The notes: generated by a model not told the origin, from the letters alone. DNA of 32,000 nt from Candidatus Brocadia sp. (GCA_021650915.1 CP091279.1:1260001-1292000); one strand, 5' to 3'. Counted from the first letter of the stretch, positions 3,246-14,501 are shown. Program-made: numbers and translations.

Positions 3246-3584
3246 TTAGATGGCGGTTTCTCCCCTCTCCCCGGTACGAACGCGAACAACATCATCGACA
3301 GAGGAAATGAAGATCTTCCCGTCCCCAATATTCCCTGTTTTGGCCTCTTTTACAATACATTGCACGATAGTGTCAACGTCCCTGTCCGCCACCACCATCT
3401 CCATCTGTATTTTCTTCAAGAGATCCGTTTTATACGTTCTTCCACGCCACTGCTCGGTAATGCCCTTTTGATGTCCATGTCCTTTGACCTCGGTTACCGT
3501 CATACCCGGATATCCGATATCCAATAAGGCGTCCTTCACCATGGTAAACCGATCCTCTCTTACAATTGCCACGATCTTCTTCAT
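3246..3584 (-). CDS. P-II family signal transduction protein (GlnB/GlnK-like), 112 aa
   Basis: Aligns end to end by eye with E. coli GlnB: MKKI.AI...TGMTVTEVKG.G.QKG.TE..RG..Y...KIGDGKIF...V..V.R.RTGE. The T-loop Tyr51 is retained (RGRTY). Confidence 0.9.
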   Translation of the reverse strand: MKKIVAIVREDRFTMVKDALLDIGYPGMTVTEVKGHGHQKGITEQWRGRTYKTDLLKKIQMEMVVADRDVDTIVQCIVKEAKTGNIGDGKIFISSVDDVVRVRTGERGETAI

Positions 3585-3601
3585 GCGCCGCTTCTCCCCT
3601 C

Positions 3602-4615
3602 CTACTCTATATCCCCATCTTCTAAACGATACGGGGCGTCGATCCCTGCACGAGATACCAATTTACCGCTATAGGTAATCGTATTTCCTATCTTTATACT
3701 TACTACCTCGTCAAACATCCTCCAGTCAAAGAGGATCTCCACTTCTGCCTTCTTACCGTCCTGACGGCTTACTCCAACACGGTTCCAGTCTACCCGCCCC
3801 ATCCCCTTATACACGACAACCCCCTGCCATCGCACATATTTACCTTTAAAATTTTTCCACAATTTCTTTTTTTCAGCGCGCGATAATGTACTGCGTTTCC
3901 CAAATTGTCTGTCCAGATCCTCAAAAGAAATATCCAGCGAATCTTTTGCCGGCGCTGCCGCGACAGTTTCCGGAGTGCTCACGGGGGTCATTGTTCCCTT
4001 ATTCATACCGTGGTGCAAAATAGGTTGCCCCCCTTTCGGATTATCAGAAAGCCTAGGAGACGCCGGGGAATTTTTCGTGGCAACAACCTTCAGTTGGCTG
4101 TCGTCATAAGAGATGGGATCTCCCCCGGCAAACAGACGACAAAAGGTATTCCCGTGCCTGCTGATTCTCTCCGGATCATAATAAAACTGGACTTCGTTGC
4201 CAATGTTCCGGTTCCGATAAGCAAGCCAATTGTACGCCCCGGTTATCAGCACCCGGTCGTCTAATACAATAAAATCCTCCACCGGGTCATTGCCGGTTGG
4301 CGTCCTGTGTACCCGGATATCAAATCCTCGCCTGATTAAGGTTTCTGTCAGCAAACCACTTTCCCTGCCAGGGAGTTGTTCCAAAATTACGATACGCACC
4401 CGAACACCCCGGTCTCTTGCAGCAACTAACTCCTGTTCGACGTCCGTAGCAGCAAAATCGTGAATACAGAGATTGATTCCTTGTTGTGCATATGCAATCC
4501 CCTCCCTCAAGCGTTCTTCGACACTACCTTGCGGAACATAAGAGACATAATCTCCTGCATGCAAAGAAGCGGAAACCCACAGGAGCATTACACACATACA
4601 TAATTTCTTCACCAT
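3602..4615 (-). CDS. Secreted PLD/Nuc-like fold protein lacking the HxK catalytic dyad, with a Pro/Ser-rich linker and an unknown C-terminal domain
   Basis: I place the start at ATG 4615 (MVKKLCMCVMLLWVSASLHAG, signal-peptide-like), which avoids overlap with nnrD. The N-terminal half aligns with Nuc endonuclease: YVPQGS...CIHDFAATDVEQELVAARDRGVRVRIVIL ... FIVLDDRVLITGAYNW. At the HxK position the sequence reads V-E-D (nt 4274-4282). Confidence 0.6.
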   Translation of the reverse strand: MVKKLCMCVMLLWVSASLHAGDYVSYVPQGSVEERLREGIAYAQQGINLCIHDFAATDVEQELVAARDRGVRVRIVILEQLPGRESGLLTETLIRRGFDIRVHRTPTGNDPVEDFIVLDDRVLITGAYNWLAYRNRNIGNEVQFYYDPERISRHGNTFCRLFAGGDPISYDDSQLKVVATKNSPASPRLSDNPKGGQPILHHGMNKGTMTPVSTPETVAAAPAKDSLDISFEDLDRQFGKRSTLSRAEKKKLWKNFKGKYVRWQGVVVYKGMGRVDWNRVGVSRQDGKKAEVEILFDWRMFDEVVSIKIGNTITYSGKLVSRAGIDAPYRLEDGDIE

Positions 4616-4739
4616 GCGATAGAGACGCAACCAGACCCTCTCCGTCGAAAGAGTAACAACCTCCAGAATCCCGCTTTCCTGATGGAGATTACAAGGAGGG
4701 TAAAAAACGCGCAAAAAAGAAAGATTCTTCATGGCAATA

Positions 4740-5618
4740 CTACAGACCCATTGTTTTCCGGTAAACCAAGAAGGCCTTTGGCAAGGCATCCAGGATGTCC
4801 GTAGCAATCAGCGACATTTCGCCCGTCTCCCGCACCGCAATATCTCCGGCCAAACCGTGTATATACACCCCCAGCTGAGCTGCTTCAAAGGGTGCGTATT
4901 TTTGCCCAATGAAGGCTGCAATCATCCCGGCCAGGACATCTCCCGCCCCGGCTGTAGCCATGCCGGGATTACCCGTCTTATTTACATAGAACCTCTCTTC
5001 ATTGACAACAAGGGTCTGATGCCCTTTCAGCACAAGGGTTGCCCTATCCATTCCCCTGAGAAATATCCGGCATGTTTCTAACCGTTTCGACTGAATCTCC
5101 TGAGTTGAGGATACTCCCATAAGGCGCGCCATTTCTCCCGGATGCGGCGTAAGGATAATCTGCTTTTTTACCTGATGTAATACACCGGGACTGTCGGCAA
5201 GCGCATTGATACCATCTGCATCCAGGACGATAGGGCAATCCAGGGATTGCAGCAGCCACAGGACCAGGCGTTTCGTTTCCAGGTATTGGGACAGGCCGGG
5301 GCCAATGGCAACGACATCAAACTGTTGCGAAAAGTCGAGGATATCCTGACGACCCAGCTCGGACAAGGTCTTCAGATGCGTTTCCGGGAGGGGATGCGTC
5401 ATAACGCAGGTCAGTTTGGATGCCACAATTCCCTGCAGACTCTCCGGGATACCCAGGGTTACCAGCCCTGCCCCGGCGCGCAGTGCGGCGCTGCTGCAAA
5501 GACAGGCAGCGCCCGTCATCCCACAGGAACCTGCCAGTACCAATACTCTTCCGTAGTCTCCTTTGTGGCTATCTGGTTTTCTCGGAAAAATATCTGGCAA
5601 TGCCTTTACTTCGACCAT
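4740..5618 (-). CDS. nnrD: ADP/ATP-dependent NAD(P)H-hydrate dehydratase (YjeF C-terminal family)
   Basis: KGDYGRVLVLAGSCGMTGAACLCSSAALRAGAGLVT, LDADGINAL, ILTPHPGEMARL and GNPGMATAGAGDVLAGMIAAF are typical carbohydrate-kinase-like Nnr motifs. The start codon is ATG. Confidence 0.85.
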   Translation of the reverse strand: MVEVKALPDIFPRKPDSHKGDYGRVLVLAGSCGMTGAACLCSSAALRAGAGLVTLGIPESLQGIVASKLTCVMTHPLPETHLKTLSELGRQDILDFSQQFDVVAIGPGLSQYLETKRLVLWLLQSLDCPIVLDADGINALADSPGVLHQVKKQIILTPHPGEMARLMGVSSTQEIQSKRLETCRIFLRGMDRATLVLKGHQTLVVNEERFYVNKTGNPGMATAGAGDVLAGMIAAFIGQKYAPFEAAQLGVYIHGLAGDIAVRETGEMSLIATDILDALPKAFLVYRKTMGL

Positions 5619-5730
5619 ACGCTCACCGTAATTTTTACCACAGAAATCAATGGAAGCACTGAGTAATAAGGAAATTCAGCTGTCTGCACATCCCGGATAT
5701 CTTTCTCCGGGTACGCTGTGGTACAGCATC

Positions 5731-6483
5731 TTATTTTTTTGTCCGGTTGATCAGCGAGGCGGCATAAGCAGCCCCAAAGCCATTGTCAATATTCACAACG
5801 GAAACACCGGAGGCACAACTATTCAGCATAGATAAAAGCGGGGTAATCCCGGAAAAGCTGGCGCCATAGCCGATACTCGTTGGCACACCGATGACAGGGC
5901 AATCCACCAGACCGCCTACCACACTTGCCAATGCGCCTTCCATACCCGCCACAACAATGATTACATTGGCCTTAAGCAATTCGCTATGATTTTTCATGAG
6001 CCGGTGGATGCCCGCAACCCCAACGTCATACAACACCCGAACAGTATTGCCCATGATCTCAGCCGTTACCCTTGCCTCCTCGGCAACGGGGATATCAGAG
6101 GTGCCGGCCGTTATAATCAGGATAAGCCCTTTGTGGGGTTTTCTGCGGGTCTTTCGTATCGTAATCGTTCTTGCCTGTTCGTGATAAACGGCCTCCGGAA
6201 ACTCACGGGAAACAGCCTCGTACATTTCCCTGGTTGCGCGGGTCGCAAGCATGTCATTCTCACCGGCAACGATATGCCCTGCAATCTTTACCACCTGTTC
6301 AGGCGTCTTCCCCAGGCAAAAAATAACCTCAGGAAAACCGCAGCGAATCTTGCGGTGACTGTCCACCTTGGCGAAGCCAATGTCCTTGTAAGGCAATTCC
6401 CGGATCTTTTCCAGGACGTCATGCATTGGCACCTTCCCGATCTTATAATTTTCCAATAATTGTTCTATGACATCAATATCCAT
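5731..6483 (-). CDS. larB: LarB-like (PurE/AIR-carboxylase-like) nickel-pincer cofactor biosynthesis protein
   Basis: IITAGTSDIPVAEEARVTAEIMG...VIIVVAGMEGALASVVGGLVDCPVIGVPTSIGYGASFSGITPLLSMLNSCASGVSVVNIDNGFGAA is the LarB/PurE-like signature. The ORF track start at 6504 is TTG. The first ATG is at 6483 (MDIDVIEQLL). Confidence 0.8.
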   Translation of the reverse strand: MDIDVIEQLLENYKIGKVPMHDVLEKIRELPYKDIGFAKVDSHRKIRCGFPEVIFCLGKTPEQVVKIAGHIVAGENDMLATRATREMYEAVSREFPEAVYHEQARTITIRKTRRKPHKGLILIITAGTSDIPVAEEARVTAEIMGNTVRVLYDVGVAGIHRLMKNHSELLKANVIIVVAGMEGALASVVGGLVDCPVIGVPTSIGYGASFSGITPLLSMLNSCASGVSVVNIDNGFGAAYAASLINRTKK

Positions 6484-6700
6484 CGCTATTTTCTTAACCC
6501 TCAACTAAGGTACGGGACAAGCGCCTTTACCAAGATAATTTAATAAGGCTGCCTTTGGCAGCGGTTTTTAAGCTTCACTCTATAAAGAGGAGAGGGGGGG
6601 TATTACGATCACCTTCACATTTTTTATCCTCCCTTTAAGAATTTTCGTAACAATTTAGTTTTACAAAAAACCCCAATAAGGACGATGTTTACCATACCGT

Positions 6701-6881: not shown

Positions 6882-7046
6882 TTCACTCATAAAAAACGGT
6901 ACCTCCTGAAAGAGGCTTATGAAAAAACTTACAAAAAAAAGAAGTTTTTATACAGTAATACTATAGAGAGAATTTTTCAAAAAGCTAAATTGTTAAGAAT
7001 TTCCAAAGATGATTTTAACACTTTTAGCAAAAATAGAAACAAAAAT

Positions 7047-7079
7047 AACCCCGTCAGGGTTTAAAACCCTAACAGGGTT
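7047..7079. repeat. Dispersed 33-nt twin-hairpin element, copy 1 (AACCCC gtc AGGGTT taaa AACCCT aac AGGGTT)
   Basis: Two adjacent short inverted repeats. A second copy with the same architecture lies at 26415-26447, with ~27/33 identity by eye. Confidence 0.8.
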
Positions 7080-7089
7080 ATAATTCAGG

Positions 7090-7280: not shown

Positions 7281-8132
7281 TCAGCCCCCTCTATTCTTGA
7301 ATTGCATCTTCGCATGATAGGAACTCCGCACCAGCGGCCCTGATGCTACATGATGAAATCCCATTCGCTCCCCCTCCAACCTGAGCCTTTCGAATTCGTC
7401 CGGTGTATAATAGCGATGGATCGGCAGGGCGTTGCCTCTCGGGCTCAAATATTGTCCGATCGTAAGCGTATCACAATGCGCATTCCTTATGTCCCTCATA
7501 ACACCAAGTATTTCATCCCAAGTCTCACCCAATCCTACCATAAAACCTGATTTTATTCCTAATGAGGGATCTTTCTGGTGTATCTGTTCCAATATCCTGA
7601 GGGACCGCCGGTAATTGGCCGTCGGCCTTACCTGCAAATAAAGGCGGGATACTGTTTCCACGTTGTGATTTATTACGTCCGGACGGGCATAAATTACCGA
7701 TTCCAATGCGGCTGATGATCCGGCAAAATCCGGTATTAAAACTTCGACTTTACAATCTTTGATATGTTTCCGAATAAGGGTGATTACCTCGGCGTAAACT
7801 GATGCGCCACCATCAGACAGGTCGTCCCTTGTCACGGAGGTTATTACGACATAGGTAAGTTTCATCTTTAAAATGGCTGCCGCGATTCGCTGTGGTTCAC
7901 CTGCATCGGCTACGGATGGCTGTCCCTTCCTGACCGCACAAAACCCGCATTGTCTGCTGCAGATATCCCCCAGTATTAAAAAGGTCGCCGTCCGCTGTTC
8001 AAAACACTCGCCAATGTTTGGACATAGCGCCTCTTCACATACGGTATGAAGTTGTTCTTCCCGTAGAATGCTTTTTATCTCAGTGAAATTTTTCCCTGAC
8101 GGTAGCTTTACTTTCAGCCAAGGGGGACGCAT
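7281..8132 (-). CDS. lipA: Lipoyl synthase (radical SAM)
   Basis: RPPWLKVKLP, LHTVCEEALCPNIGECF and the radical-SAM CSRQCGFCAV motif. The start codon is ATG. Confidence 0.95.
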   Translation of the reverse strand: MRPPWLKVKLPSGKNFTEIKSILREEQLHTVCEEALCPNIGECFEQRTATFLILGDICSRQCGFCAVRKGQPSVADAGEPQRIAAAILKMKLTYVVITSVTRDDLSDGGASVYAEVITLIRKHIKDCKVEVLIPDFAGSSAALESVIYARPDVINHNVETVSRLYLQVRPTANYRRSLRILEQIHQKDPSLGIKSGFMVGLGETWDEILGVMRDIRNAHCDTLTIGQYLSPRGNALPIHRYYTPDEFERLRLEGERMGFHHVASGPLVRSSYHAKMQFKNRGG

Positions 8133-8265: not shown

Positions 8266-9078
8266 TTATCCCTTATTTCTCCTGAGAATACAGGAGATTT
8301 CTTCATTCAAAGCATTCCGCCACTCCCGATATTTTCTGGGAAACGGCTTGTCTTTTTTCAGCATAGTATACAAATAATTAATCCTCGACTCTACCATAAG
8401 TTTTGCCATCTCAGTGTTATCCTGCACGTAGGTATTGATTAAATCCAGGATTTTGTCTTTATTCGCATGAAATTTTTCTATGATTTCAACGATATGTGGC
8501 ATATCATGAACGACATTTTTACTAAAAAACAGTACGACTGCATCCGGAAAAGACAATATATCGTCATCACTGCTAATAATGAGGGATGCATTGTGGTCGA
8601 TAGCGTACACCCTTCCGTCATCGGTAAATAACACATTTCCTAAATGCCTGTCGCTATTCCCGATGATAAAATCAAAGACCCGCAATCGTTCATAATCTTT
8701 CCTCTCTTCATCCGTAAATCTCTCAATCTGATACCCATCCTTGGCGTTTTTAATCCAGTCCTGAACCGAGCCATCATACTGCACATTGCCAATCATATCA
8801 TCAATCACCATTGTTTTAGGCACAAGTCCCAGACCCACAATCTTATCAATTTGATAAACAATCGCTTCCCGGATTGCGGTATCCGGATTATCAGCCATCC
8901 AGTAATGTCGGATATCACACTTGAATATTACGGCGCTTCCATCCTTAAATATAATCTTCTCCGGACCGCGCGGGCCCCCCATCCATCGGTCATATTCTAT
9001 ATGGTCTATCTCTCTGTCCTTGATCGAGCCAAAGATCCCTTCTTTGACGCCTTTTTCGAAAATACTTTTCTCTATCAT
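8266..9078 (-). CDS. PI3/PI4-kinase-like (type II PI4K / HipA-like catalytic core) protein of unknown substrate
   Basis: VIFK (putative ATP lysine, K53), GSVQDWI (hinge-like), FDFIIGNSDRHLGNVLF (catalytic-loop DRHxxN, nt 8635-8652) and YAIDHNASL (DFG-equivalent). The ATG lies 9 nt after the lipB stop. Confidence 0.55.
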   Translation of the reverse strand: MIEKSIFEKGVKEGIFGSIKDREIDHIEYDRWMGGPRGPEKIIFKDGSAVIFKCDIRHYWMADNPDTAIREAIVYQIDKIVGLGLVPKTMVIDDMIGNVQYDGSVQDWIKNAKDGYQIERFTDEERKDYERLRVFDFIIGNSDRHLGNVLFTDDGRVYAIDHNASLIISSDDDILSFPDAVVLFFSKNVVHDMPHIVEIIEKFHANKDKILDLINTYVQDNTEMAKLMVESRINYLYTMLKKDKPFPRKYREWRNALNEEISCILRRNKG

Positions 9079-9087
9079 ATTCTTTCG

Positions 9088-9795
9088 TTACACCTTCACC
9101 ATATTGTTTATAACCCCTAACCGCTGCATCATAGCCTTTATTCCGATTGCGGTCATCTGTACCTGAAACACATCCGAATAGCACTTTGTAATCTCACGGT
9201 AAACAGCTTTTACACTTACGTTTTTTTTGGCTACCGTCTGAAGTGAAGCAACCCTTATTCCCTGAATTCCACAGGGAGTAATGAGCCGAAAAGGAGATGT
9301 ATCATTGTTCACGTTCAATGAGAATCCGTGCATGGTGTAGCCCAATGCCATCCGAACTCCAATAAACCCAATCTTTTCTCCGTTCACCCAGACACCCGTA
9401 TATCCTTCTCTTCGCTCAGCTTCAATGTCAAAGCCCGACAATGTCCTAATCATGACCTCTTCAAGCATCCGGAGATATTGATAGTAGTCGCCCGTATACG
9501 CCGACATTTTTATCACGGAATAACCAACTGCCTGGCCTGGGCCATGATAGGTGGCTAATCCACCCCGGTCAGTTTTATAAACGGCAAAACCATTCTTTTC
9601 GTAATAATCCCTGTTTGAGATTAAAGCGCCCTCTTTATATCTGCGTCCATAGGTAAAAGTAGGGGGATGCTGAAGCAAGACAAGGCAATCTTCTATCGTA
9701 TCAGAAATTCTCGCTTCAAGCAGCGCCTTTTGTAATTCCCAGGCATCACCATACTCCACCGTATCCAGTTGGAGGAGAAGACCGCTTCGCGCCAT
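9088..9795 (-). CDS. lipB: Octanoyl-[ACP]:protein N-octanoyltransferase
   Basis: LLQHPPTFTYGRR, TDRGGLATYHGPGQAVGY and KIGFIGVRMALGYTMHGFSLNVN. The ATG at 9795 overlaps the E2 3' end by 50 nt. Confidence 0.9.
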   Translation of the reverse strand: MARSGLLLQLDTVEYGDAWELQKALLEARISDTIEDCLVLLQHPPTFTYGRRYKEGALISNRDYYEKNGFAVYKTDRGGLATYHGPGQAVGYSVIKMSAYTGDYYQYLRMLEEVMIRTLSGFDIEAERREGYTGVWVNGEKIGFIGVRMALGYTMHGFSLNVNNDTSPFRLITPCGIQGIRVASLQTVAKKNVSVKAVYREITKCYSDVFQVQMTAIGIKAMMQRLGVINNMVKV

Positions 9796-11020
9796 AGGCT
9801 GAAACCTCCCATTTTTCCAATCTCTCTTTTATCGTACGAAGAAACGCATCGGCATTGGCCCCATCCATAACCCGATGATCAAACGAAAGGCTGAGATACA
9901 TCATCGATCGGATCGCAATGGCATCGTCTACCACAACAGGTCTTTTGACGACTGCCCCAACACCCAGGATTGCAACCTGAGGCAGTAAGATAACGGGTGT
10001 GCCAAACAGGCTTCCATTAAGACCGTAATTCGTGATGGTAAACGTCCCCTCCTGCACCTCTTCGGGTTTTAACTTTTTTGTGCGCGCACGCCCGGCAATA
10101 TCCTGAATATCCTTTGCTAATTGCACAAGATCTTTTTTATCAGCATCCTTTATTACCGGAACGATTAACCCATCTTCCAGGGATACTGCAATCCCGACAT
10201 TGATCGTGTTCTTCTGAACAATGCCTTCTTCTTTCCATGAGGCATTCATGAGAGGATGTTCCTTGAGGGCGCGTGCGGTAGCCAAGGTTATAAACGGCAG
10301 ATACGTAAGATGAATCTCCTCCTCTCGCGTCATACCGTCCTTGTTCAGGTCACGATACTTTACGACCTTTGTCATATCGACTTCAAACACCGTTGTCACA
10401 TGGGCAGCGGTCCGTTTGCTTTGGACCATCCTGTCAGCGGTAATTTTTCGTTTTGGGCTTAGAGGAATAAATATTTCCTTCTCATAAATTTTTTGTCCCG
10501 TTTCCGCAGGCGGGACAGCGCTGCCGGCACCTGGTCGTGAAGACAGGTAATCCATAATATCTTTTTTCGTAACCCGCCCCCCTTCACCCGAGCCCTTTAT
10601 CTCTTCCAGATTTACCGCATATTCTTTAGCCAATCTCCTCACCAGAGGTGAATATCGTTTTTCTCTTTCGGCTGCCCTTTCAATTTCTTTTACCGCCGTA
10701 ACGGCTTCAGCCTTTTTTGCAGTTACAGGCAGGGGCGAACGGCCGTTCGCCCCTACAGCGCTAATCACGCCTTCTCTTGTTTCCACAGCTTCAATTTGAG
10801 CAATCACCGTTTGTACCGGAAGGGTCTTCCCTTCAGGATAATAAATCTTTTTCACGATGCCGCTTGTTGGCGCAGGTATCTCGGTATCAATCTTGTCGGT
10901 GCTGATTTCAACGATGGGTTGTTCCTTCTCAATCCTGTCTCCCTCGTGCACCAGCCACCTGGTAATAGTCCCTTCTGCGACACTCTCTCCCATCTGCGGC
11001 ATAATCACATCCACCGGCAT
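9746..11020 (-). CDS. Dihydrolipoamide acyltransferase (E2) of a 2-oxoacid dehydrogenase complex
   Basis: It has an N-terminal lipoyl domain (VEISTDKIDTEIPAP), a peripheral subunit-binding domain (SPLVRRLAKEYAVNLEEIKGSGEGGRVTKKD) and a catalytic domain (LSLSFDHRVMDGA). I prefer the ATG at 11020 because GAGAGG lies upstream. The track start at 11029 is GTG. Confidence 0.9.
   Translation of the reverse strand: MPVDVIMPQMGESVAEGTITRWLVHEGDRIEKEQPIVEISTDKIDTEIPAPTSGIVKKIYYPEGKTLPVQTVIAQIEAVETREGVISAVGANGRSPLPVTAKKAEAVTAVKEIERAAEREKRYSPLVRRLAKEYAVNLEEIKGSGEGGRVTKKDIMDYLSSRPGAGSAVPPAETGQKIYEKEIFIPLSPKRKITADRMVQSKRTAAHVTTVFEVDMTKVVKYRDLNKDGMTREEEIHLTYLPFITLATARALKEHPLMNASWKEEGIVQKNTINVGIAVSLEDGLIVPVIKDADKKDLVQLAKDIQDIAGRARTKKLKPEEVQEGTFTITNYGLNGSLFGTPVILLPQVAILGVGAVVKRPVVVDDAIAIRSMMYLSLSFDHRVMDGANADAFLRTIKERLEKWEVSAYGAKRSSPPTGYGGVW
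10731..10754. repeat. Perfect 24-bp palindrome AGGGGCGAACGG|CCGTTCGCCCCT inside the E2 linker coding region
   Basis: Read directly from the sequence. It encodes GANGRSPL (aa 93-100) between the lipoyl domain and the subunit-binding domain. Confidence 0.9.
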
Positions 11021-11035
11021 ACAGAACACCTCTCA

Positions 11036-12010
11036 TTAATAACGCATTAATTTCTCTACTGCAGAAATAACATCCTTTGTCTGAGGCAGGAAGGCCTCTT
11101 CCATCTGTGCGCTGTAAGGCACCGGGGTATCCAGGGCTGCAATGCGGATAATAGGCGCATCCAAAAAATCAAAGCAATACTCGTTAATTAAGGCAGAGAC
11201 TTCTGCCCCAACACCCCCCGTCTTCGTTTGTTCATGCAGTACGGCGACCTTGTTTGTTTTTTTTACCGTATCAAAGATTGCTTTTTTATCTAACGGTAAA
11301 ATTGTTCTCAAATCAATAACTTCACAGGAAATTCCATTTTGTCTGAGCGTCTGTGCCGCTTCAAGCGCGGTATGAATCATTGCCCCGTATGTGATAATCG
11401 AGACATCCTTGCCCTCCAGGGCAGTTCTCGCCTTTCCTATAGGAACAACGTAATCTTCTTCAGGAACAGAATCTTTAATGCGACGGTAAAGATATTTGTG
11501 TTCACAATAGATAACAGGATCGTTATCACGTATGGATGCCTTTAGCAAACCTTTTGCGTCATATGCAGTAGAAGGGGCAACGATCTTTAGACCTGGCACA
11601 TTAAAAAAGAATCCCTCAATACACTGTGAATGAAATGCCCCGCCATGGATATTTCCTCCGTATGGCGCTCGTATAACAATGGGAGTAGCGCCCCCCCAAC
11701 GATAATGATTCTTTGCGGCTACATTTACCAGCTGATCAAATGCACAGGAGATAAAATCGGCAAACTGCATCTCTACGACAGGCCGCATTCCCACAAGCGC
11801 TGCACCAATGGCAGCGCCGGTAAAACCAGATTCTGACAGCGGGGTGTCGAGAACACGCCATTCACCATATTTATTGAAAAGACCTTCTGTTACCCGAAAC
11901 GCACCGCCGTATACCCCCACGTCCTCGCCCAAAATAAATACGCCGGCGTCACGCGCCATCTCTTCATCCAATGCCTCTTTGATTGCTTCAAGATAGGTAA
12001 TTTCCTTCAT
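11036..12010 (-). CDS. 2-oxoacid dehydrogenase E1 component, beta subunit
   Basis: Transketolase-like pyrimidine-binding and C-terminal domains: VFILGEDVGVYGGAFRVTEGL, DTPLSESGFTGAAIGAA, VIRAPYGG. The ATG overlaps the E1alpha stop (ATGA). Confidence 0.9.
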   Translation of the reverse strand: MKEITYLEAIKEALDEEMARDAGVFILGEDVGVYGGAFRVTEGLFNKYGEWRVLDTPLSESGFTGAAIGAALVGMRPVVEMQFADFISCAFDQLVNVAAKNHYRWGGATPIVIRAPYGGNIHGGAFHSQCIEGFFFNVPGLKIVAPSTAYDAKGLLKASIRDNDPVIYCEHKYLYRRIKDSVPEEDYVVPIGKARTALEGKDVSIITYGAMIHTALEAAQTLRQNGISCEVIDLRTILPLDKKAIFDTVKKTNKVAVLHEQTKTGGVGAEVSALINEYCFDFLDAPIIRIAALDTPVPYSAQMEEAFLPQTKDVISAVEKLMRY

Positions 12011-12990
12011 GACATCTCTTCCTCTATTGATGTTGCATACACACCTCTTAAAACGTCTCCCGGTTCAGGATAGGGACTCTCCTCTGCAAACGCCTCAGCC
12101 TCTTCAATCTCTTTCTTCGCCTGTAAATCGATACTATCCAGTTCCTCTTTTTCAGAAATATGGTTTTTCATTAAATAGGTTTCCATGTGTAAAAGCGGGT
12201 CCTTCTTCTTCCATTCTTCCAGGAGTTCGCGAGGAACATATTTGGCGCTATCGTGTTCCGAATGGCCGTGCATCCTCATAGTCTTGCATTCGATAAAGGC
12301 AGGCCCTCCCCCGTTTCTCGCTATCTCATAAGCTTCTTTCGCCGCCGTGTAAACTTCCACCACATTATTTCCGTCTACGATCCTACTGGGTATGCCATAA
12401 GCCAGGGCGCGTTCTGCAACATCTTTTATAGCCATCTGGAGTTTCAACGGAGTGGAATAGGCATATTGGTTATTGTTGCAGATAAATACTATGGGCAATT
12501 TTCTTACCGCCGCGATATTCATCCCTTCATGGAAATCACCGCGACTTGTTCCACCATCCCCCGTACACGCCACAGCAACCCTCTTTTCACCACGGATTTT
12601 AAAGGCAAGCGCCGCGCCCGCTCCTATCGGATAATTATCCGCCAGATGGCTGGGAAAACCAAATACGCCATAATTTAAATCACCCACGTGAACATTTCCC
12701 TCCTTGCCTCCGGTGACACCCGTTTTTTTACCGAAATACTGCGCCATTATTCTTTTTGCCGTAATACCGCGAATTAAAAAAACCCCCATATCCCGAAAAT
12801 ACGGAGCGGCAATATCATTCTTTTCAAGGGCATAGCCGTACCCGACGGACACAGCCTCGGTGCCGTTGCTTGTCCATGCCCCTCCCAATATCTTCCCCTG
12901 ATGATAGAGCGATGTAACACGATCTTCCAGCCTTCGCGTCAATTTAAGATAATAATATAATCGTAGCAGATCTTCCCGTTTAATATCCAT
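12007..12990 (-). CDS. 2-oxoacid dehydrogenase E1 component, alpha subunit (TPP-dependent)
   Basis: The TPP-binding motif is present: CTGDGGTSRGDFHEGMNIAAVRKLPIVFICNNNQYA. The motif MRMHGHSEHD is also present. Confidence 0.9.
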   Translation of the reverse strand: MDIKREDLLRLYYYLKLTRRLEDRVTSLYHQGKILGGAWTSNGTEAVSVGYGYALEKNDIAAPYFRDMGVFLIRGITAKRIMAQYFGKKTGVTGGKEGNVHVGDLNYGVFGFPSHLADNYPIGAGAALAFKIRGEKRVAVACTGDGGTSRGDFHEGMNIAAVRKLPIVFICNNNQYAYSTPLKLQMAIKDVAERALAYGIPSRIVDGNNVVEVYTAAKEAYEIARNGGGPAFIECKTMRMHGHSEHDSAKYVPRELLEEWKKKDPLLHMETYLMKNHISEKEELDSIDLQAKKEIEEAEAFAEESPYPEPGDVLRGVYATSIEEEMS

Positions 12991-13001: not shown

Positions 13002-13247
13002 TTACAGACCGCCGGTAATCGCCCGGTCAATCTCTGTTTGTGCCTTGAGTTCCATTACATGATTGGTAAGCTCAGCGATATGTCCCTTTTCCCACTCCGC
13101 AAGGGTGAGCAACATTTTGCGCGTGGCAGGCTTTGCCGCCTGCAATGCCGCCCGATAGTAATAATCATATGATTCTTGTTCCCGCTTAATTGCCTCGATG
13201 AGCACATCCATTATAGCGCCTGGTTCCGATGTCTGATTCAACTTCAT
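13002..13247 (-). CDS. Small ferritin-like / rubrerythrin-family two-helix protein (81 aa)
   Basis: AIKREQESYDYYYRAA...LLTLAEWEKGHIAEL has the E...ExxH half-site pattern of rubrerythrin-type di-iron helices. A strong SD (GGAAGGAGGA) precedes the ATG. The gene ends 12 nt before E1alpha. Confidence 0.55.
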   Translation of the reverse strand: MKLNQTSEPGAIMDVLIEAIKREQESYDYYYRAALQAAKPATRKMLLTLAEWEKGHIAELTNHVMELKAQTEIDRAITGGL

Positions 13248-13364: not shown

Positions 13365-14501
13365 TTAACGGGCGTTCAAGGTTATTGACGACAACGGTCT
13401 TAAACTGGTCAACTGAGGATCTTTTACCTTCTTATGCTGAATTAGAACCTTGAAAATCTCACCCATCACCTCCGGATGAATGAGGTTTTTTAGTTTTAAT
13501 ACAGTGCCGGTATCCTGTTTTGCATCACGCAATCTTTCCAGCATGCCCAAAGCAATCAAAAAATGGGATTGCTTTGTAAAGCCCGTTACCTCCAACTGTG
13601 CTAATCTTCCTGCATTTATCAGGTTCGTAAAGTCTACATGGGCAGTAATATCTTGTTCACCCGGCCGTGCATAGTAATCCCGGTTGACCGTATGGCCATG
13701 ATAACATCGCAGTGTCCCCTCCCGTGCGTTTCCGTGATATAACCTGTCCCGGGTATCACCGTAATCGATTGTAATAACAAATCCTTCGTCTAATTTTTCT
13801 GAAGCGTGCCTGAGCCAGTCCGCAGCGCCTATATTCACCTCACAGGCCTGATCTTCTTCGAGATATATTTTATTTGTTTTCAGATAACCGTGTAACGCCG
13901 GCCCTGATATCACGTCGTCTATATCACAAAAATTTATTCCATTATACCCGACATAGGTCTCCTTGAAAACCTTATTTTTCATTTTCAACCGGTGCACTGG
14001 CAGGGCGTCTACAAATTCGTTGGATAAAAAACATCCGCGCATCCTGCCAAACGAGAAACCATCCTCCGTGCATGTATGCCACGACACCTTCTCCTCCGGA
14101 ATCTCGAGAGACGCTAAAAGCGCCCGCTGTTTTTCCCTTGCGTGGGGATTCGATTCGACGATGATATAGTGGAAGTTTTCGTAAAATTCAGGGTATTCAT
14201 TCTTAATACAGCAAACAATATCGTGGCACAGCCATCCTTTGTTCGCGCCCATTTCCACAACGGTGAACAAATCCTTCCCCATAATCACCCACATCTCTTC
14301 CAGTTGTCTCGCAATGAGTTCTCCAAAGATCCGGTGGACAGCAGGGCTTGTATAGTAATCGCCCCGCTTTCCAATCCGTTCTTTTTCCGAGTGGTAATAA
14401 CCATATTCCGGATGATAGAGCGCCATTTGCATATACTCGGCAAAGGTAATCTTCCCTTTCTTCAGTATGCTTTCGATGATCACATTTCTCAACAATTGCA
14501 T
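13365..14501 (-). CDS. Class I SAM-dependent methyltransferase, MidA/NDUFAF7 (DUF185) family
   Basis: YMQMALYHPEYGYYH...GDYYTSPAVHRIFGELIARQL...VVEMGANKG matches the MidA family N-terminus and its SAM motif I. Confidence 0.75.
   Translation of the reverse strand: MQLLRNVIIESILKKGKITFAEYMQMALYHPEYGYYHSEKERIGKRGDYYTSPAVHRIFGELIARQLEEMWVIMGKDLFTVVEMGANKGWLCHDIVCCIKNEYPEFYENFHYIIVESNPHAREKQRALLASLEIPEEKVSWHTCTEDGFSFGRMRGCFLSNEFVDALPVHRLKMKNKVFKETYVGYNGINFCDIDDVISGPALHGYLKTNKIYLEEDQACEVNIGAADWLRHASEKLDEGFVITIDYGDTRDRLYHGNAREGTLRCYHGHTVNRDYYARPGEQDITAHVDFTNLINAGRLAQLEVTGFTKQSHFLIALGMLERLRDAKQDTGTVLKLKNLIHPEVMGEIFKVLIQHKKVKDPQLTSLRPLSSITLNAR

Follow-up and report, generated by a model that had tools for sequence, protein, structure and literature searches.

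Introduction

The locus described here raises the question of what a kinase-like gene does between lipB and lipA, at the end of a bacterial 2-oxoacid dehydrogenase operon. The gene, which we call X, lies in a window of 32,000 nucleotides from Candidatus Brocadia sp. (GCA_021650915.1, CP091279.1:1260001-1292000). An initial annotation assigned its product to the PI3K/PI4K-type II/HipA-like kinase fold and proposed, from position, that it may phosphorylate a component of the dehydrogenase, a lipoylation enzyme or a small molecule. That annotation also considered an embedded kinase of this fold in a bacterial dehydrogenase or lipoylation operon to be undescribed, and our literature search agrees: we found no relevant report on a kinase inside a bacterial dehydrogenase/lipoate operon, on an anammox PI4K-like kinase or on the related family TIGR03843. 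What is new at this locus is an uncharacterised protein of the PF00454 superfamily within an undescribed operon context. Here we ask whether X is a kinase, how far its linkage to the dehydrogenase genes extends, and which substrates its structure and neighbours favour.

Results

Organization of the operon

Searches against Pfam and NCBIfam place on the minus strand, in order, a Methyltransf_28 gene, a gene for an 81-aa ferritin-like protein, E1alpha, E1beta, E2, lipB, X and lipA (Table 1), and so bear out the gene order that had been read from the ferritin-like gene to lipA. The operon in the window holds no E3 gene. The 81-aa ferritin-like protein is 68–100% identical across all Brocadiaceae operons seen, and the position of the Methyltransf_28 gene upstream of the operon is conserved across loci. 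An operon 100% identical to that of the window is found on a 46.8-kb metagenome contig (WBZY01000234.1), and the closest named genomes are those of Candidatus Brocadia species including B. pituitae, in which X is 87–88% identical.

Table 1 Features of the operon and of gene X in the window, with the evidence for each assignment.
Feature	Position	Strand	Evidence or remark
Terminator-like hairpin, 17-bp stem and T-run, about 200 nt past lipA	7045..7081	-	Consensus scan; pattern match only
lipA, lipoyl synthase; final gene of the operon	7281..8132	-	NCBIfam TIGR00510, 368.9 bits (cut-off 310)
X, 270-aa single-domain PI3/PI4-kinase-like (PI4K type II / SCO1664-like) atypical kinase	8266..9078	-	ATG start
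D161 codon (AID-HN), predicted metal-binding Asp, equivalent to the DFG/IDNG Asp	8596..8598	-	Invariant in 107 homologs
Catalytic loop D143-R-H-L-G-N148, PI3/PI4-kinase DRHxxN motif	8635..8652	-	D143, R144 and N148 invariant in 107 homologs
K53 codon (VIFK), predicted ATP-phosphate-binding lysine	8920..8922	-	Invariant in 107 homologs; translation
lipB, lipoyl(octanoyl) transferase	9088..9795	-	NCBIfam NF010925, 172.8 bits (cut-off 155); TIGR00214
E2, dihydrolipoyl acyltransferase (lipoyl, E3-binding and catalytic domains)	9746..11029	-	Pfam 2-oxoacid_dh, Biotin_lipoyl, E3_binding
E1 beta subunit	11036..12010	-	NCBIfam NF006667, 379.5 bits (cut-off 321)
E1 alpha subunit, TPP-binding, loop HGHSEHD	12007..12990	-	Pfam E1_dh, 268.6 bits; translation
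81-aa ferritin-like (rubrerythrin/EncB-like) protein, head of the operon	13002..13247	-	Weak family matches only
Methyltransf_28 (NDUFAF7-like), putative SAM-dependent methyltransferase	13365..14501	-	Pfam PF02636, 199.9 bits

The lipB stop codon (TAA, 9088–9090) lies 9 nt upstream of the ATG of X, as first annotated. X is separated from lipA by 133 nt in the window and by just 12 nt in three other loci (L024, L027 and L030). No minus-strand terminator-like site was found between X and lipA by the consensus scan, and a strong one follows lipA. Together with the 9-nt gap, these two observations lead us to infer that X and the E1alpha-E1beta-E2-lipB-lipA operon most probably share a transcript; promoter and terminator calls are consensus matches only. 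An internal promoter could lie within the 133-nt gap between X and lipA.

X carries the fold and catalytic signature of the PI3/PI4 kinases

The product of X matches Pfam PF00454 (PI3_PI4_kinase) over residues 95–232 with 44.2 bits (E = 2.9e-11, gathering cut-off 27.1). No second domain rises above its Pfam cut-off, in agreement with the original description of a 270-aa protein without a further domain, and a precomputed PF00454 match is present in all 95 full-length homologs. On translation we recovered each of the motifs previously listed: VIFK (with K53), GSVQDWI, FDFIIGNSDRHLGNVLF and YAIDHNASL.

An alignment of 107 sequences extending down to 22% identity shows K53, P87, G103, D136, D143, R144, N148, D161 and R232 to be invariant, and E71 nearly so. 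The four residues that the initial annotation took to be catalytic (K53, D143, N148 and D161) are thus conserved throughout this set, and they are unchanged in all of 20 Brocadiaceae homologs. The catalytic loop of X aligns to those of PI3Kalpha and PI4KIIbeta. By homology with the PI3/PI4 kinases, K53 and E71 of the alphaC helix would position ATP, D143 in the DRHxxN loop would serve as the catalytic base, and N148 and D161 would hold the metal.

Modelling leads to the same family. An AlphaFold model based on only 20 close homologs reached a pLDDT of 50.6 and was discarded; the model used instead, based on the 107-sequence alignment, has a pLDDT of 89.7 and a pTM of 0.90. A Foldseek comparison of this model with the PDB returns PI4KIIalpha/beta on top (E = 1.8e-8, TMq 0.58), then VPS34 and then the Helicobacter pylori Ser/Thr kinase CtkA (TM 0.53/0.52). 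A profile of the 107 proteins likewise finds PI4KIIbeta (E = 6.8e-16) and PI4KIIalpha (4.6e-14) in the PDB, followed by FAM20A/C/B at E = 1e-12 to 8e-7 in the region of the catalytic loop; a single-sequence search with X gave marginal matches only (E about 0.05). These results support a bilobal PI3/4K-type kinase fold for the product of X, in which the catalytic signature is intact.

The best match in NCBIfam is TIGR03843, the actinobacterial SCO1664 family, whose members resemble X in their single-domain build, size and motif set. The match covers residues 49–166 only, and its score (52.2 bits, E = 5.2e-14) falls under the cut-off of 172.4, so that X is related to this family but is not a member. 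The FAM20 kinases, which include the protein kinase FAM20C and the xylose kinase FAM20B, are reached only with the superfamily profile; they are eukaryotic, secreted and equipped with additional domains, and X alone has no Fam20C match in Pfam. The mitochondrial kinases PDK and BCKDK are of the GHKL fold, unrelated to the PI3/4K-like fold of X, and no HATPase_c or BCDHK match was found in Pfam at E<=0.01. Their likeness to X lies only in a hypothetical role, that of a kinase tied to E1/E2.

X lacks typical features of lipid kinases and of HipA-type toxins

Given that the best structural and profile matches are type II PI 4-kinases, and that some database records name X homologs 'phosphatidylinositol 4-kinase', X could be a genuine membrane-lipid kinase acting on phosphatidylinositol or on another hydroxyl-bearing lipid headgroup. 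The two share the kinase core, including the GS.Q hinge, the (N)xDR..xN catalytic loop, the AID(N/H)(G/N) motif and the FK lysine. X is however a soluble bacterial protein of about 270 aa with 16–20% identity to PI4KII, and corresponds to the kinase core only, with target-normalised TM values of 0.29–0.48. The palmitoylated and membrane-binding inserts of PI4KII have no counterpart in it. Neither a hydrophobic nor an amphipathic membrane anchor is present, and the protein has a pI of 5.47, a GRAVY of -0.42 and no hydrophobic segment.

The activation or substrate-side loops of lipid kinases are basic, while the activation segment of X, IDHNASLIISSDDDILSFPD, is acidic (pI 4.05). In addition, the phospholipid headgroups described in anammox bacteria are PC, PE and PG, PI not being known among them, and the nearest relatives of X outside this group (see below) sit in Patescibacteria, where lipid synthesis is largely missing. 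Taken together, the missing inserts, the acidic loop, the Patescibacteria relatives and the known headgroups make a phosphoinositide an unlikely substrate, and we consider any membrane-lipid kinase role highly improbable. The database label is probably misleading.

If X were a toxin or defence kinase of HipA type that had merely come to lie in the operon, this would account for weak matches to HipA_2 (16.2 bits against a cut-off of 27), YjjJ (22 against 401) and the PADLOC candidate PDC-M03A, and phage proteins do carry similar domains, fused to MuF, portal or ADP-ribosyltransferase modules. All three matches are nevertheless under their cut-offs, those in PADLOC reaching only E>=1e-3. X shares its superfold with HipA and CtkA, the latter being single-domain and of similar size, but it has neither the N-terminal domains nor the HipB-type partner of HipA, and its catalytic loop is of the PI3/4K type DRHxxN. 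Its neighbours are lipB and lipA; there is no antitoxin-like gene beside it and no mobile-element context. Vertical inheritance, housekeeping-like conservation and a GC3 typical of the neighbouring genes also speak against such an origin. We reject both membership of the HipA family and a defence or toxin role, the probability of which we regard as vanishingly small.

X is conserved in the Brocadiaceae

A word-indexed search returned 103 homologs of X, all with at least 62% identity, and every named one belongs to the Brocadiaceae (Brocadia, Jettenia, Kuenenia and 'Brocadiaceae bacterium'). Among 1.84 billion cluster representatives, an exhaustive HMMER search found one full-length representative (498 bits) together with fragments; the next match, a protein of 3184 aa in which several kinase domains occur, scores 166 bits and the remainder about 75 bits or less. 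The single high-scoring representative, the sharp fall in score and the names of the homologs define a tight, lineage-specific clade, and on this distribution X appears to be a core gene of the Brocadiaceae anammox bacteria.

We compared X with the corresponding genes of three close Brocadia genomes. Its dN/dS of 0.08–0.14 is equal to or below the values obtained in the same genome pairs for lipB (0.12–0.20), lipA (0.13–0.16) and E2 (0.11–0.13), and between genomes X retains 73–88% identity where LipB retains 63–82%. This marks X as a real gene subject to purifying selection. Its overall GC is low (0.41), which reflects amino-acid composition, and its GC3 of 0.46 falls within the span of the neighbouring genes (0.41–0.57), which rules out a recent horizontal acquisition.

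The family scores, the conserved residues, the structure and this selection all support the kinase-fold part of the initial annotation. It is very likely that X is a catalytically competent kinase, an ATP-dependent phosphotransferase that falls, within the PI3/PI4-kinase superfamily, in the PI4K-type-II / SCO1664-like branch, and, judged from sequence, there is little doubt that it is active as one.

The nearest relatives beyond the anammox bacteria are single-domain proteins of about 270 aa with 25–31% identity to X, mostly from Patescibacteria, which match TIGR03843 at about 1e-22. In five of five loci examined they are followed, 5–13 nt downstream, by a conserved ORF of 85–89 aa without a family match. 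No homolog of this partner was found in the anammox loci searched, and none of the Patescibacteria loci examined links the kinase to dehydrogenase or lipoate genes.

Linkage to lipB is frequent but traces to one clade

To follow the linkage across genomes, we gathered X-anchored loci from GTDB species genomes and four look-ups. The order E1alpha-E1beta-E2-lipB-X-lipA occurs in about 24 species genomes, so that the recurrence of lipB-X-lipA in related genomes, suggested originally, holds; wherever an X-anchored locus has lipB, in 26 cases, X comes immediately after it. We also scanned metagenomes with lipB as the anchor, which is unbiased as to X, and found X immediately after lipB in 27 of 30 Brocadiaceae-type operons. 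The other three (L051, L079 and L080) stop at lipB and continue with unrelated genes; the dehydrogenase operon thus exists without X too. A 123-aa radical-SAM fragment takes the place of lipA after X in L075–L077. The search for LipB homologs gave at least 120 matches, those listed all being Brocadia-like with at least 63% identity, and in the lipB-anchored scan X never stood beside the lipB homologs of other taxa (33–47% identity).

X is found in other settings as well. Jettenia (L004, L032) has E2-lipB-X-metallophosphoesterase without lipA. A Kuenenia-like clade (L001/L039, L036, L038) carries a two-gene metallophosphoesterase-X unit, with no dehydrogenase or lipoate gene near it. A paralog lies between pstS and pstC in a phosphate ABC-transport operon, pstS-X'-pstCAB (L006, L037), and coexists with a lipB-linked copy, since one MAG contains both L020 and L037. 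Finally, X stands alone in L029, L033 and L041, among unrelated neighbours such as a MutL-like gene (PF13941), ribF and nifS/nifU.

In a neighbour-joining tree of X rooted on the Patescibacteria relatives, the deepest branches are those of the pst paralogs and of the Kuenenia-like clade, and all lipB-linked copies fall, with Jettenia and the stand-alone clade, into one large clade. Because the lipB-linked copies are all within one monophyletic clade, the lipB-X synteny counts as approximately one insertion event. The gene would have been inserted once, in the Brocadia lineage, between lipB and lipA; the linkage appears from the tree to be frequent and stable and to have been lost later at least once.

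X adjoins two different phosphoesterases

The metallophosphoesterases (MPPs) beside X are both of YfcE type and are only weakly similar to protein phosphatases. That of Jettenia scores above the cut-off of the YfcE-phosphodiesterase subfamily and that of Kuenenia is a weaker relative. The two are 31% identical, compared with about 70% for X between these genera, which indicates that X came to adjoin two non-orthologous YfcE-like enzymes, the one following X in Jettenia and the other preceding it in Kuenenia. The Brocadia sinica enzyme, 5.6 kb away, is unrelated. The idea of one and the same phosphatase partner is weakened by these comparisons; the adjacency is either fortuitous or hints at a relation between kinase and phosphoesterase.

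Discussion

Candidate substrates

The proposal that X is a kinase of the dehydrogenase or of lipoylation stands as far as fold, catalytic residues and synteny are concerned, while its second part, action on E1, E2 or the lipoylation enzymes, does not follow from our data. Kinase-like folds of this clan accept proteins (HipA, CtkA, FAM20C), sugars (FAM20B) and lipids (PI4KII), so the fold alone cannot decide the substrate class of X, and the operon position by itself leaves the substrate undefined.

A rival reading of the locus is a dedicated regulatory protein kinase, a functional analogue of PDK/BCKDK on a different fold, which would act on E1alpha (for example at the HGHS loop), on E2 or on LipB/LipA; in some genera a YfcE-type phosphoesterase would counter it as the phosphatase. 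The recurrence of the lipB-X order in both sets of loci and the tight spacing fit this reading. In Jettenia, the operon E1-E2-lipB-X-metallophosphoesterase mimics a kinase/phosphatase pair, and the HGHSEHD loop of E1alpha, which we liken to site 1 of PDHA1, resembles a eukaryotic phospho-site motif. HipA and CtkA, the bacterial members of this fold with an assigned function, are moreover protein Ser/Thr kinases.

Other observations speak against this reading. The synteny reduces to one insertion; the Kuenenia-like and stand-alone clades hold X apart from dehydrogenase and lipoate genes; and three operons of the same type do without it. The HGHS loop is general to E1alpha rather than particular to the genomes that bear X, and the two MPPs are phosphodiesterases that scarcely resemble protein phosphatases. 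We therefore judge an analogue of PDK/BCKDK to be unlikely. The same holds for direct action of X on dehydrogenase or lipoylation proteins in general, which we place between unlikely and decidedly so. The strongest form of the idea, in which a 2-oxoacid dehydrogenase complex or its lipoylation would have in X, a PI4KII-like enzyme, its first dedicated bacterial kinase, switching the complex by phosphorylating E1alpha, E2 or LipB against a YfcE-type MPP, is a doubtful one. The lipB-X adjacency in 90% of operons and the Jettenia arrangement E2-lipB-X-phosphoesterase could equally reflect a functional tie to the dehydrogenase; this tie is weakly supported. The operon context of X is unusual and testable, and the case that it reflects function is thin.

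Phosphorylation of a small molecule (a metabolite, a cofactor or a sugar) has other evidence behind it. The clan also includes aminoglycoside kinases and choline/thiamine kinases besides the xylose kinase FAM20B, and cationic vitamin salvage, such as that of thiamine for the TPP-dependent E1, or an intermediate hydrolysed by the YfcE-type phosphoesterases would be examples. This is consistent with the acidic substrate-side loop and acidic pI of X, with the relation of its profile to FAM20 members including the glycosaminoglycan xylosylkinase, and with a weak APH(9) match in NCBIfam. X also recurs beside phosphodiesterase-type enzymes and phosphate-uptake genes, and its nearest relatives belong to Patescibacteria, which depend on salvage. 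However, neither Pfam nor NCBIfam gives X an above-threshold similarity to a characterised small-molecule kinase. The 85–89-aa gene next to the Patescibacteria relatives is more in keeping with a partner or substrate that is a protein, and the thiamine idea is based solely on the need of E1 for TPP. A small-molecule kinase is in our view rather improbable as well.

Our preferred reading is that X is a soluble, lineage-specific kinase which is co-expressed with the dehydrogenase and acts on a substrate other than a phosphoinositide, with action on the operon itself as a minority possibility; the evidence tilts moderately towards this account. As its probable co-transcription suggests, the cell would produce X alongside the 2-oxoacid dehydrogenase and the enzymes that lipoylate it. 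Its link to the dehydrogenase would be one of co-expression, given that X is equally found paired with YfcE-type MPPs, in a phosphate-uptake operon or alone, and that X acts directly on E1, E2 or LipB would be the lesser possibility. More likely substrates are soluble proteins or small molecules, the latter probably cationic or neutral; the remaining weight falls to a protein or regulatory kinase with a target elsewhere than in the operon.

Significance

Single-domain bacterial kinases of the PI4KII/SCO1664-like type are widespread and their substrates are unassigned, and the clade of X is strongly conserved. The contexts in which X occurs, namely dehydrogenase and lipoate genes, phosphoesterases and phosphate uptake, point to clear experiments. 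Should X control the dehydrogenase complex, PDK-type regulation would gain its first counterpart in a prokaryote, and the X-MPP system would be convergent with mitochondrial PDK/PDP through unrelated folds. Such control would also bear on why anammox bacteria, which are strictly anaerobic and use the Wood-Ljungdahl pathway, retain a lipoylated 2-oxoacid dehydrogenase. If it does not, X would still be a marker kinase specific to the anammox bacteria.

Genes flanking and within the dehydrogenase operon

At the head of the dehydrogenase operon, E1alpha is immediately preceded by an 81-aa ferritin-like ORF, which is kept in this position with 68–100% identity in all Brocadiaceae operons seen. To our knowledge, no other half-ferritin heading a 2-oxoacid dehydrogenase operon has been described. 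In nearly all loci, a Methyltransf_28 gene is a conserved upstream neighbour of the operon, and its product is possibly a second protein-modifying enzyme linked to the dehydrogenase complex.

The last 50 nt of E2 lie within the longest lipB ORF of the window. The true start codon is uncertain, because the identical database copy of the LipB protein (P0328, 223 aa) appears to begin 12 codons further downstream. The genes downstream of the operon have, as far as can be told, no relation to X, the kinase-fold protein encoded between lipB and lipA.

Three operons of the Brocadiaceae type stop at lipB and contain neither X nor lipA. Their gene order is fer81 (the ferritin-like ORF)-E1alpha-E1beta-E2-lipB where the locus extends far enough, L079 showing only E2-lipB, and lipB is variously followed by a GNAT-POR fusion and fumarase, PocR/ParA-like genes or a PAS sensor. 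At three other metagenome loci (L075–L077), lipB and X are followed only by a 123-aa radical-SAM fragment at the expected position of lipA, which may be a decayed lipA; phosphoglucomutase and nucleotidyl-transferase genes come after it.

YfcE-like metallophosphoesterases adjoin X in two genera, Jettenia and Kuenenia. The two enzymes are only 31% identical to each other, and the side of X on which they are encoded differs between the genera; this reflects either independent recruitment or coincidence.

Features of the window and of the compared loci
Feature	Location	Strand	Remark
larB (nickel-pincer cofactor), NAD(P)HX dehydratase, PLD-like protein, P-II protein	window 3246-6504	-	downstream of operon
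lipB/E2 overlap	window 9746-9795	-
81-aa ferritin-like ORF	window 13002-13247	-	weak similarity to rubrerythrin and to EncB, an encapsulin cargo
Methyltransf_28 gene	window 13365-14501	-	NDUFAF7-like, putative protein arginine methyltransferase
Operons ending at lipB	L051:5001-10705; L079:1247-6924; L080:5001-8351
123-aa radical-SAM fragment	L075:6757-7128		likewise L076, L077
YfcE-like metallophosphoesterase	L004:8872-9570; L001:7276-7995		Jettenia; Kuenenia
X paralog in pst operon	L006:8001-8873; L037:10001-10783
85-89-aa ORF	L045:5830-6096; L046:5844-6101; L047:5860-6129; L103:3843-4100; L104:3873-4133		Patescibacteria

X-related kinases in other contexts

X-similar PI3/4K-like domains were found in tailed-phage proteins through the BFVD matches of a predicted structure model. 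These proteins are annotated as, or contain, head-morphogenesis (MuF), portal or ADP-ribosyltransferase modules, which suggests that the domains are injected effector kinases. The second-ranked protein of the exhaustive search (P0104, 3184 aa, 166 bits) combines four PI3_PI4_kinase-like domains with DUF4347.

In all five Patescibacteria loci examined, a conserved ORF of 85–89 aa lies 5–13 nt 3' of the X-related kinase. These ORFs share 44–52% mutual identity and the motif FPKDG..F.E.L...F.SGYL.A, match no Pfam or NCBIfam family and have no counterpart in the anammox loci. A dedicated role as partner or substrate of this branch of kinases is possible for the product.

A phosphate ABC-transporter operon encodes a paralog 66–69% identical to X between its pstS and pstC genes, at a locus that also carries a phosphate-selective porin and phoU. 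The genomes with this paralog also possess the lipB-linked copy of X, and the placement of the paralog in the pst operon suggests that it is expressed under phosphate limitation.
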